The notes under the pieces: generated by a model
What the model was told of the DNA's origin: nothing
What the model saw: only the letters and a program-made list of their open reading frames with translations
The model's database searches: none
Program-made: the position numbers and the translations under genes
Source of the DNA: a virus
Taxonomy: Duplodnaviria > Heunggongvirae > Uroviricota > Caudoviricetes
Length of the DNA: 7,433 nt
Strand: one strand, 5' to 3'
Virus record (IMG/VR): IMGVR_UViG_2778261064_000007
Shown here: in pieces, positions 6,113 to 7,433 of the stretch
How positions within the stretch are numbered: the first letter of the stretch is position 1
How the letters are laid out: every line of letters starts with the position of its first letter

Positions 6113-6136
6113 TTTTTTTAAATCAGGAAATTAAAA

Positions 6137-7433
6137 ATGTCTGTATTAATTTCGGGTGTGCTGACGGATGGTGCGGGAGTCCACATGTCCGGATACCATA
6201 TTATTCTGAAAGCCCGACAGAATACATCCGCAGTGGTCATGAGAACGGTGGCAACAGTGGTGACAGGGCCGGCAGGAGAATATGCATTTGAAGCCCAGAC
6301 CGGAAGATATGATGTTTATCTTCGTTCGTGTATTGAAAGAGAATATTGCGTCGGTGATATTTCGGTTTACGACGACTCAAAGCCCGGCACACTGAACGAC
6401 TTTCTGACCGCCCTTGATGAAGGCGATTTAAAACCGGATGTAGTGAAACGCTTTGAGGAAATGGTGGCGCAGGCGCAGCAGAGCGCGGAAGCAGCAGCGG
6501 AAAGCGAACGACAGGCCGGGCAACATGTCACTGATGCGCAACAAATTAAGAGCGACTGCGAGGCGCTGGCGGATAACGTACAGCAGAATGCAGAAGCCGT
6601 TGCCGAAGATAAAAATCAGGTGGCGTTGCTGGCGTCATCTGCCACACAGGATGCAGCCCGCGCAGAGCAGGCCGTTAAGGATGCCGACACGATAGTCAAG
6701 AAAGCGGTCGATAAACTTGCTGATGCCGCAACGCTGACCGGCGAGGCAAAAGCCAGTGCCGAAGCGGCCGCACAAAGCGAACAGAATGCGGAAAATCACG
6801 CTGATAATGCAGCACAAAGCGCACAGCAGACCGCGCAGGATGTGCAGGCAACGGTCACAGCCCGCAGTGATGCGGAACGTTTTGCGGGTGAGGCAGAAAA
6901 CAGCGCACAGTCATCAGGCACAGCGCGGGACGAATCAGTCGATGCCGCCGAACGCGCCCGCCTTTATCATAATACCGCATCATCAGCAGCGACCAGTTCA
7001 GGACTGTCGGCAAATGCGGCGCTGGGGTACAAAAACAGTGCCGCCGAATACGCCCGACAGGCTAAAGCCAGCCAGGATGCAGGTGCAGACAATGCGCAGG
7101 AAGCGAAACAGTACAGGGATGAGGCACAGCAGATAGTTGATGACCTGAATGCAACAAATGCCAGCACGACAGAAAAAGGACTGGTGCAACTGTGTAGTGA
7201 CACGGATAACGACAGCGAGGAACTGGCTGCCACGCCAAAGGCTGTCAAAACCGTCATGGAGGAGACGAAAACAAAAGCGCCACTGGACAGCCCGGCTTTC
7301 ACCGGCACCCCAACCACCCCAACCCCACCGGATGATGCCGCCGGTCTGGAAGCAGTGAACGCAGCGTTTGTGCGCAAACTGCTTGCTGCGCTGGTTGGCT
7401 CATCGCCGGAAGTTCTGGACACCCTGAACGAGC
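6137..7433 (+). CDS. stf: Tail fiber protein, lambda-Stf-like N-terminal domain plus Ala/Gln/Glu/Ser-rich shaft and phage tail fibre repeat; 3' end lies beyond the window (432 codons seen)
   Basis: ATG 6137 with AGGAA RBS 7 nt upstream; open in frame to the window end (own translation, no stop). The N-terminus (MSVLISGVLTDGAGV...IILKARQNTSAVV...GRYDVYL...VGDISVYDDSKPGTLNDFLTALDEGDLKPDVVKRFEEMV) parallels the lambda Stf N-terminus as I recall it (ISGVLKDGTGK...IQLKA.RNSTTVV...GRYSMDV...GTITVYEDSQPGTLNDFL...RPE.LRR.ELMV). Later, TEKGLVQLCSDTDNDSEELAATPKAVKTVMEETKTKAPLDSPAFTGTPTTPT matches the conserved tail-fibre repeat (ATPKAVK encoded at 7229-7249). Confidence 0.85.
   Translation, partial: MSVLISGVLTDGAGVHMSGYHIILKARQNTSAVVMRTVATVVTGPAGEYAFEAQTGRYDVYLRSCIEREYCVGDISVYDDSKPGTLNDFLTALDEGDLKPDVVKRFEEMVAQAQQSAEAAAESERQAGQHVTDAQQIKSDCEALADNVQQNAEAVAEDKNQVALLASSATQDAARAEQAVKDADTIVKKAVDKLADAATLTGEAKASAEAAAQSEQNAENHADNAAQSAQQTAQDVQATVTARSDAERFAGEAENSAQSSGTARDESVDAAERARLYHNTASSAATSSGLSANAALGYKNSAAEYARQAKASQDAGADNAQEAKQYRDEAQQIVDDLNATNASTTEKGLVQLCSDTDNDSEELAATPKAVKTVMEETKTKAPLDSPAFTGTPTTPTPPDDAAGLEAVNAAFVRKLLAALVGSSPEVLDTLNE

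Follow-up and report, generated by a model that had tools for sequence, protein, structure and literature searches.

When a tail fibre gene of the lambda Stf type is found immediately behind the genes of a contractile tail, two questions arise: does it encode a working second fibre, and where on a sheathed particle could such a fibre be held? A locus of this kind lies at the end of the window considered here, by which we mean the whole stretch of 7,433 nucleotides of Caudoviricetes DNA that was analysed. An earlier note on this DNA had described a tail core flanked by fibre-related genes, and had weighed a particle with two fibre types, a mosaic acquisition of stf and the relocation of a single fibre. 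The whole window is a single co-directional tail operon, with the following features, all on the plus strand:

1..177, plus strand: 3' end of a Tfa gene (Caudo_TAP), 58 codons and the stop; PF02413, E 7.6e-14
232..6112, plus strand: P2-like contractile tail core, from sheath to D, by Pfam matches; its genes are given in the next seven lines
232-1707, plus strand: sheath (Phage_sheath_1/1C)
1704-2222, plus strand: tube (Phage_tube)
2271-2579, plus strand: E (Phage_TAC_7), with E+E' extending to 2716
2697-4349, plus strand: tape measure
4346-4840, plus strand: U (Phage_P2_GpU)
4815-5033, plus strand: X (Phage_tail_X)
5024-6112, plus strand: gpD; weak match to PF05954 (GPD), 47-49% identity to the annotated D of yong2 and Chris1
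6113..6136, plus strand: spacer between D and stf, 24 nt, AT-rich, with the ribosome-binding site AGGA at 6125-6128
6137..6415, plus strand: StfN collar/anchor domain, residues 1-93, a beta-sandwich of six strands with a short helix behind it (PF08400, 9e7m, AF2, Foldseek and dN/dS)
6416..6439, plus strand: linker, predicted to be flexible, residues 94-101 (low pLDDT)
6440..7162, plus strand: Ala/Gln/Glu-rich shaft, a predicted coiled coil, residues 102 to about 342 (AF2 helix, composition)
7163..7282, plus strand: Phage_fiber_2 repeat, residues 343-382 (PF03406, E 1e-14)
7283..7433, plus strand: further part of the fibre ORF, without a stop and cut at the window end

The tail core is indeed enclosed by fibre-related genes, the Caudo_TAP end on one side and stf on the other, and stf begins as had been described, 24 nt behind the gpD stop and with a ribosome-binding site of its own: the TAA of gpD occupies 6110-6112, the ATG of stf is at 6137, and AGGA stands 8 nt upstream of this start codon. 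The frame then runs through 432 codons without a stop to the window end; beyond this edge lie the C-terminal part of the fibre, which binds the receptor, and the gene of the DUF4376 chaperone. A consensus scan of 6113-6136 revealed neither a promoter-like nor a terminator-like site, and the tight, terminator-free junction of 24 nt fits a co-transcription of D and stf. The GC content is 0.46 over 6001-6400, a segment that spans the junction, and 0.56 beyond it, the tail genes ranging from 0.49 to 0.60, with no clear foreign GC signature for stf.

By sequence as well as by fold, the protein that starts at 6137 belongs to the PF08400 Stf family. Its residues 1-134 match the full "Prophage tail fibre N-terminal" profile (positions 1-134 of 134, E 1.1e-54) at 184.5 bits, the Pfam gathering cut-off being 26.6 bits; it is this domain that the protein carries, and not the gpH-type PF12571. 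In a search of PDB sequences, residues 1-93 matched the collar domain of Ur-lambda Stf, 9e7m, with E 4.5e-16 and 45% identity, so that the proposed kinship of the N-terminus with Stf is borne out. The AF2 model that we used was built on an MSA of 38 homologues and has an overall pLDDT of 77 (a single-sequence model of residues 1-140, with pLDDT 44.8, was discarded). It contains six strands within residues 2-77, a helix at 86-89 and, after a disordered linker (94-100), a long helix that starts at residue 102, with pLDDT of about 85 over residues 1-93 and below 50 for residues 94-100; this order of strands, helix, linker and helix is the layout described for gpStfN. The linker, in which D97, L98, K99, P100 and D101 are invariant among the aligned homologues, occupies the same position as that of Ur-lambda (residues 92-101), the shaft is the counterpart of the proximal coiled coil in lambda Stf, and the Phage_fiber_2 repeat is common to the fibre S of phage Mu, with 5yvq and 8ju3 aligning to residues 319-384.

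Foldseek placed the Ur-lambda Stf collar first (9e7m, E 2e-8, TM 0.85), the neck protein gp40 ("collar spike") of the Vibrio myophage XM1 second (E 6.5e-7) and, at rank 7 and weakly (E 6.5e-3), chain a of 8keg, the neck-fibre complex of the cyanomyophage A-1(L); we take this chain for gp82N, the N-domain of the fibre, on account of its length of 125 residues, which agrees with the modelled Met1-Ser125. The PDB sequence search also returned XM1 gp40 (phmmer E 1.6e-7 over 1-198); its N-terminal domain taken alone is a remote relative (24% identity, E 3e-5), and gp40 scores 18.6 bits against PF08400, under the cut-off.

To what kind of phage does this gene belong? Outside the fibre genes, the window is without a nucleotide-level match to sequenced phages; by megablast, the whole window recurs at 91-98% identity in 74 complete Escherichia coli genomes, and two annotated copies, in strains RM9088 (L001) and 08-00022 (L002), provide the context. 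These prophages are integrated at ompW and carry, on their early side, int, xis, exo, dicB, cI/cro-like regulators, replication genes of the O/P type, RusA and three tRNAs, followed by lysis genes (holins and an endolysin) and by a head module of lambda-type terminase, gpW, portal, S49 protease, decoration protein, gpE-like capsid, FI and FII; two genes of connector/neck type stand between FII and V. The late order is V-W-J-I-H-Tfa / sheath...D / Stf-DUF4376 / attR, with I a Tail_P2_I and J a Baseplate_J protein. In both copies the counterpart of the fragment at 1..177 closes a Tfa of 175 aa, which comes after a PF12571 fibre of 419-441 aa, and in 08-00022 this upstream fibre has a PF12571 N-terminus of the P2 gpH type; hence the H-like fibre that was to be looked for upstream is present before the sheath in near-identical prophages. 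Downstream, the 757-aa Stf of 08-00022 is followed by a 195-aa DUF4376 protein and then by attR-side genes. DUF4376 is a family different from lambda Tfa, and its members were experimentally shown to be fibre chaperones in Alteromonas phage V22 (PMC7289586). Thus, of the second tfa or invertase that was to be sought behind stf, a chaperone-type gene was found, and no invertase in either prophage; nor did the window scan and the annotation of the two copies disclose a promoter or terminator at or after stf, a boundary that had been held up as a possible objection.

As its gene content reads, the element encodes two pairs of fibre and chaperone, gpH-type with Tfa and Stf with DUF4376, which disposes of the idea of a relocated single fibre. 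Both annotated copies have lesions: in RM9088 an IS66 interrupts stf, and in 08-00022 the terminase is frameshifted.

Since the head and the regulatory genes are lambdoid, we regard the element as a lambdoid phage with a P2-like tail and not as a relative of P2; stf stands at the end of the late operon, exactly as in lambda. P2, phiCTX and the R-pyocins, which had served as the reference for judging the position of stf, are accordingly not the proper yardstick. With them the element shares the order FI-FII-E-E'-T-U-X-D, the E+E' frameshift and the upstream V-W-J-I-H-G genes; it differs from them in the lambdoid head and regulation, in the extra Stf-type pair after D and in the absence of ogr at this place, and the two annotated prophages have no head genes of the P2 type.

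Was the gene, then, left behind when the tail was exchanged? One can envisage that the siphophage genes Z...J were replaced by a P2-like tail and that an orphan stf went on being expressed without being incorporated. The complete prophage of E. coli C5 lends substance to such a relic: it contains lambda Z...J, lom, a 774-aa lambda Stf with Tfa and, behind these, a second StfN fibre with DUF4376, and the window-type prophage matches it at 96-98% identity in gpW, portal and capsid but at only 42% in FI, with FII and all tail proteins unrelated. On these protein comparisons, the relation between C5 and the window type is a tail-module swap on a common head, with the breakpoint at FI/FII and with the second-fibre cassette kept. 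Because the head of this sister siphophage is so nearly the same, the part that was swapped is the tail module and not stf, contrary to the suggestion that a P2-like phage had picked up stf by mosaic exchange. The IS66 insertion in RM9088 could likewise be counted in favour of a relic.

The close relatives tell otherwise. IMG/VR was seeded with gpD, so that the presence of stf was not selected for, and 29 close relatives were obtained. StfN begins 24-28 nt after D in each of the 27 that have sequence downstream of D, the other two stopping at the contig edge. The stf ORFs of the relatives are open over 405-1046 aa, their C-terminal parts are mosaic, and a chaperone homologue follows stf in most of the relatives that have enough downstream sequence. 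For codons 1-95 of StfN within the window-type lineage, the median dN/dS is 0.10 and dS averages 0.30; the anchor domain is therefore under purifying selection and is not decaying. A more distant lineage (L124), whose gpD is only 47% identical, keeps the gene order of the window type and encodes, after D, an 881-aa protein with a divergent StfN-like N-terminus (25.2 bits against PF08400, just below the cut-off; E 0.0018 against 9e7m). The isolated phages nearest by gpD, yong2 and Chris1, have another gene order and are without Stf. A relic fits poorly with strong purifying selection on the anchor in a contractile-tail lineage, with a gene present in 27 of 27 relatives, with intact ORFs that have a diversifying C-terminus and mostly a matching chaperone, with a StfN-like protein after D in a lineage 47% identical in gpD, or with the maintenance of the cassette on at least four other contractile-tail lineages, which are described below. 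We consider a relic unlikely, indeed very much so; the ORF at 6137 is in all probability a real, functional second fibre.

The same cassette is indeed found on other phage backbones. The 5' part of stf has 78-85% nucleotide-level identity to genes of phiP27, Rac-SA53 and the "Actinobacillus" phage pPE4, all of which have, at the genome end, a primary fibre with its Tfa, a gap of 23 nt, a StfN fibre and a DUF4376-type gene. The similarity begins at the ATG, the spacer 5' of stf not being conserved with respect to these three phages, and a conserved cassette boundary was rejected on this ground. We classed 91 StfN-seeded loci by BLASTP against reference proteins, and a scan of genome contigs for StfN gave 11 loci. 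The cassette ends the late operons of the window type (A), of phages with a myovirus tail of the Rac-SA53 type (B), with the Mu-like tail of phiP27 (C), with a P2-like tail in the yong2/Chris1 order V / sheath...D / W-J-I-H-Tfa / Stf (D) and with another Mu-like tail (E), and also those of lambda-type siphophages (F). In every backbone but (A), stf follows a Tfa gene, and the spacer measures 23-63 nt in most lineages; in (A) it follows D only because the block of baseplate and primary-fibre genes precedes the sheath. The window type, phiP27 and Rac-SA53 share, by BLASTP, fibre-module proteins only, namely Tfa1, Stf, DUF4376 and, at about 75%, fibre 1 in its distal half, and no head, neck or tail protein common to any two of them was detectable by this method. 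A conserved docking partner was accordingly rejected as a candidate for these three.

This pattern suggests a branched fibre, in which StfN would dock on the primary fibre or on a Tfa retained at its tip, and the two cassettes would travel together for that reason: the fibre modules are all that the three backbones have in common, and stf stands close behind Tfa in most lineages. All solved homologues, however, bind rings on the axis of the tail or neck and not fibres, and a classical lambda-type Stf functions without any upstream fibre. Moreover, in the window-type lineage fibre 1 varies between 59 and 100% identity and Tfa1 falls into four types, yet StfN stays at 88% identity or more, in one cluster, so that the anchor does not co-vary with the primary-fibre module. 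A branched arrangement thus seems improbable to us.

What the anchor itself recognizes can be approached from the distribution of its subtypes. Copies of StfN that are identical over 100/100 aa occur on backbones of the phiP27 type, the Rac-SA53 type and the yong2 order. Since the representatives compared, phiP27 against Rac-SA53 and the window type against both, share no head, neck or tail protein that BLASTP detects, no conserved partner can be named for that cluster, and a specific interaction of its members with the neck is not supported by the sequence comparison; identical anchors on unrelated backbones imply that binding is generic, that it is dominated by ring closure, or that it is directed at some other target. 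The question raised earlier, with which baseplate family this N-terminal domain pairs, probably has no answer: the domain is a collar, and its identical copies sit on three unrelated contractile backbones. A myophage-specific subclade of StfN (at least 78% identity) was tried and rejected, the same clusters being found as the second Stf of lambda-type siphophages (L022, L028, L082 and E. coli C5). The cluster to which the StfN of the window belongs (at least 88% identity) comprises the window-type backbone and two lambda-type siphophage loci.

In contractile tails of the P2/T4 type, the sheath and the wedge of the baseplate wrap the tube and its initiator. With both covered in this way, the docking site that is used in lambda is lacking here; by BLASTP, there is no similarity to lambda V or M, and the window and its relatives have genes for sheath, FII-type tube, U, X and D instead. 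The site in question is known from Ur-lambda, where twelve StfN, from four trimers, form a collar round the place where the last tube ring meets the distal tail protein, and contact both through one loop (PMC12617516). In XM1, six gp40 trimers bind the rings of the head-completion and tail-terminator proteins at the neck (PMC10457771), and gp82N of A-1(L) binds the neck adaptor ring (PMC10966104). Ig-like collars are also found at the interface of adaptor and head-completion proteins in the myophages Bas63 and Sf14. Given a tube covered by the sheath, and given that the only solved myophage homologues are neck fibres, a ring at the neck is preferred over one at the baseplate, and the accessory fibre collar may be mounted at the head-tail connector, an assignment by analogy to which we would give somewhat less than an even chance. 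The C5 siphophage, with the same StfN cluster, has the head and the gpW adaptor in common with the window type and no tail protein; this pattern of sharing fits neck mounting but does not prove it.

The fibre could instead be a conventional distal side fibre, its collars ringing the baseplate-proximal part of the tail or docking at the baseplate periphery beside the gpH-type fibres. Fibre genes that end tail operons do usually encode baseplate fibres, and in phiP27, Rac-SA53 and pPE4 stf comes directly after the baseplate-fibre cassette. Such a distal position is rather unlikely in view of the enclosed tube and initiator and of the lack of gpV or gpM homologues, of the identical anchors on three backbone types whose representatives share no BLASTP-detectable baseplate protein, and of the neck location of both myophage structural homologues.

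The explanation that we favour as a whole, and hold to be reasonably probable, is an accessory fibre of the Stf type in a lambdoid prophage, anchored by its collar, with the neck as the likeliest site. The ORF at 6137 would then be the 5' part of the last structural pair of the late operon, a trimeric Stf-type fibre with its DUF4376 chaperone, in a phage that combines a lambda-like head with a P2-like tail and already possesses a gpH-type fibre with Tfa; to judge from this gene content, both fibres would be incorporated and the virion would carry two fibre types. The fibre itself would begin with its anchor on the particle, an Ig-like "collar" domain of about 93 aa, and continue through a short linker into a long shaft of coiled coil; the end that binds the receptor would be mosaic and exchangeable, and would be folded by the chaperone encoded downstream. 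To go by the solved collars, the N-domains may form a ring about the head-tail connector and not about the baseplate, and the fibre may let the phage adsorb fast and reversibly to a second receptor, in the manner of Ur-lambda Stf, while the baseplate fibres would trigger contraction.

Comparison with known systems shows which parts of this picture are borrowed from where. With Ur-lambda Stf (9e7m/9mgh, PMC12617516) the protein shares the PF08400 collar, the succession of collar domain, linker, coiled coil and Phage_fiber_2 repeat, and the position as the last fibre gene of a lambdoid late operon with a chaperone gene next to it; a dispensable, accessory role would be expected from this likeness. 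In contrast to Ur-lambda, the tail here is contractile and P2-like and lacks the gpV/gpM junction encircled by the collar in lambda; DUF4376 takes the place of Caudo_TAP as the chaperone, and a gpH-type baseplate fibre that of gpJ as the partner. XM1 gp40 (7kjk, PMC10457771) and, more distantly, A-1(L) gp82 (8keg, PMC10966104) belong, as the protein studied here would, to a contractile-tailed virion; they have an Ig-like N-domain of the same fold that leads directly into a trimeric coiled coil, their genes lie apart from the baseplate genes, and they form a second set of receptor-binding appendages. The sequence similarity to them is remote (24% identity for the XM1 domain, with gp40 under the PF08400 cut-off), the C-terminus of XM1 gp40 is a tailspike, and the neck site, which has been solved in those phages, is assigned here by likeness. 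In function, the closest counterpart of the Stf-type protein would nevertheless appear to be the XM1-type neck fibre, however distant the homology.

The nearest relatives in sequence are the pairs L56/L57 of phiP27, tail3/tail4 of Rac-SA53 and gp69/gp70 of pPE4, which have the same StfN subfamily (66-85% over residues 1-225) and a DUF4376-type partner (51-55%), and which likewise constitute the final pair before attR, after the primary fibre and Tfa. In these phages the tail core is followed by the genes for baseplate and fibre 1, and stf stands right behind Tfa, whereas in the window type the same block precedes the sheath and stf follows gpD; the heads and tails are unrelated.

It might be tempting to go further and to consider this StfN subfamily as a backbone-agnostic anchor, whose ring would close upon itself round the head-tail connector of essentially any tailed phage, be its tail contractile or not. 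We regard this generalization as doubtful. If it held, the cassette of fibre and chaperone could move between unrelated phages and work at once, myophages gaining neck fibres and lambda-type phages a third receptor-binding protein. Mounting on unrelated contractile virions without adaptation would explain the promiscuity of the cassette among E. coli prophages and would provide a general means of giving engineered phages or tailocins a new fibre specificity. How a lambda-type collar is mounted on a sheathed tail is a testable structural question, if one of modest scope.

As to novelty, RefSeq annotates the stf gene as a matter of routine, and the sequence record of phiP27 already contains the double cassette. 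In the open-access literature we found no paper on lambda-type (PF08400) collar fibres of contractile-tailed phages or on their portability, and no description of the phiP27-like double fibre cassette or of the morphology of SubAB prophages. For annotation, the gain is that in these prophages a "prophage tail fiber N-terminal domain" gene located after gpD or Tfa can be taken as an accessory second fibre and not as the baseplate fibre. For temperate phages that spread toxin genes, dual receptor-binding proteins determine which hosts are within reach. The RM9088 prophage carries genes for a SubAB-like AB5 toxin; phiP27 and Rac-SA53, which bear the same fibre cassette, encode Stx2e and LT-II.

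The fibre gene stf, which starts 24 nt after gpD, encodes an N-terminal collar/anchor domain of the lambda Stf type (StfN) and, after it, a short segment:

window 6416-6439, predicted flexible linker of Stf (aa 94-101)

The residues D97, L98, K99, P100 and D101 of this linker are invariant across 38 homologues that are elsewhere 50-97% identical, a degree of conservation which suggests that aa 94-101 form a contact-making segment and not a passive tether.

StfN-type genes are found in several other arrangements. One window-type locus (L034, 138-2300) contains an additional gene of this type (61% identity, 538 aa), together with a chaperone gene, ahead of the genes for the primary fibre, Tfa and the sheath, so that in this locus StfN fibres flank the tail core on both sides; no baseplate genes were seen within the 10 kb covered. 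In lineage L124 (7137-10704), where gpD identity is 47%, the gene that follows D codes for a protein of 881 aa whose N-terminus is StfN-like but divergent and whose C-terminal part shows no recognisable domain; this gene is adjoined downstream by a 303-aa ORF without a known family. The lambda-type siphophage prophage of E. coli C5 (L101, 17756-22697) possesses three receptor-binding proteins: gpJ, a full-length lambda Stf of 774 aa that is accompanied by Tfa, and, after these, a second fibre of the StfN type with the DUF4376 chaperone. The head of this prophage shares 96-98% identity with the head of the contractile-tailed one, and the recombination breakpoint between the two lies at FI/FII.

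Among the phages that carry a related second-fibre cassette, "Actinobacillus phage vB_Apl-pPE4" and the E. coli prophage Rac-SA53 are collinear, with almost equal gene lengths, and have E. coli-type fibre genes in common; the stated host of vB_Apl-pPE4 looks doubtful.

Within the tail operon itself, three further features deserve consideration:

window 196-213, strong GC-rich hairpin followed by a T-run, after Tfa
window 2241-2258, strong GC-rich hairpin followed by a T-run, after the tube gene
window 2271-2579, tail chaperone gene E

In a lambdoid late operon, antiterminated read-through would be required past both hairpins; alternatively, these structures may set the stoichiometry of the sheath and the tube relative to the later genes. 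Gene E contains a slippery T7G run (2536-2543), and the -1 frame is open over 2534-2716; this combination is the classic P2 E/E+E' programmed -1 frameshift, the E' part of which appears in the RefSeq annotation as a separate "hypothetical protein".

The annotated reference prophages, RM9088 and 08-00022, are both damaged: in the former, stf is split by an IS66-family element (L001, 27679-30294), and in the latter, the large terminase is frameshifted (L002, 1-955). The near-identical prophage of RM9088 also carries SubAB-like AB5 toxin genes in the order B-A-B (L100, 26082-28009); three tRNA genes immediately precede them and the lysis genes follow, and in Stx phages stx is located at this site.
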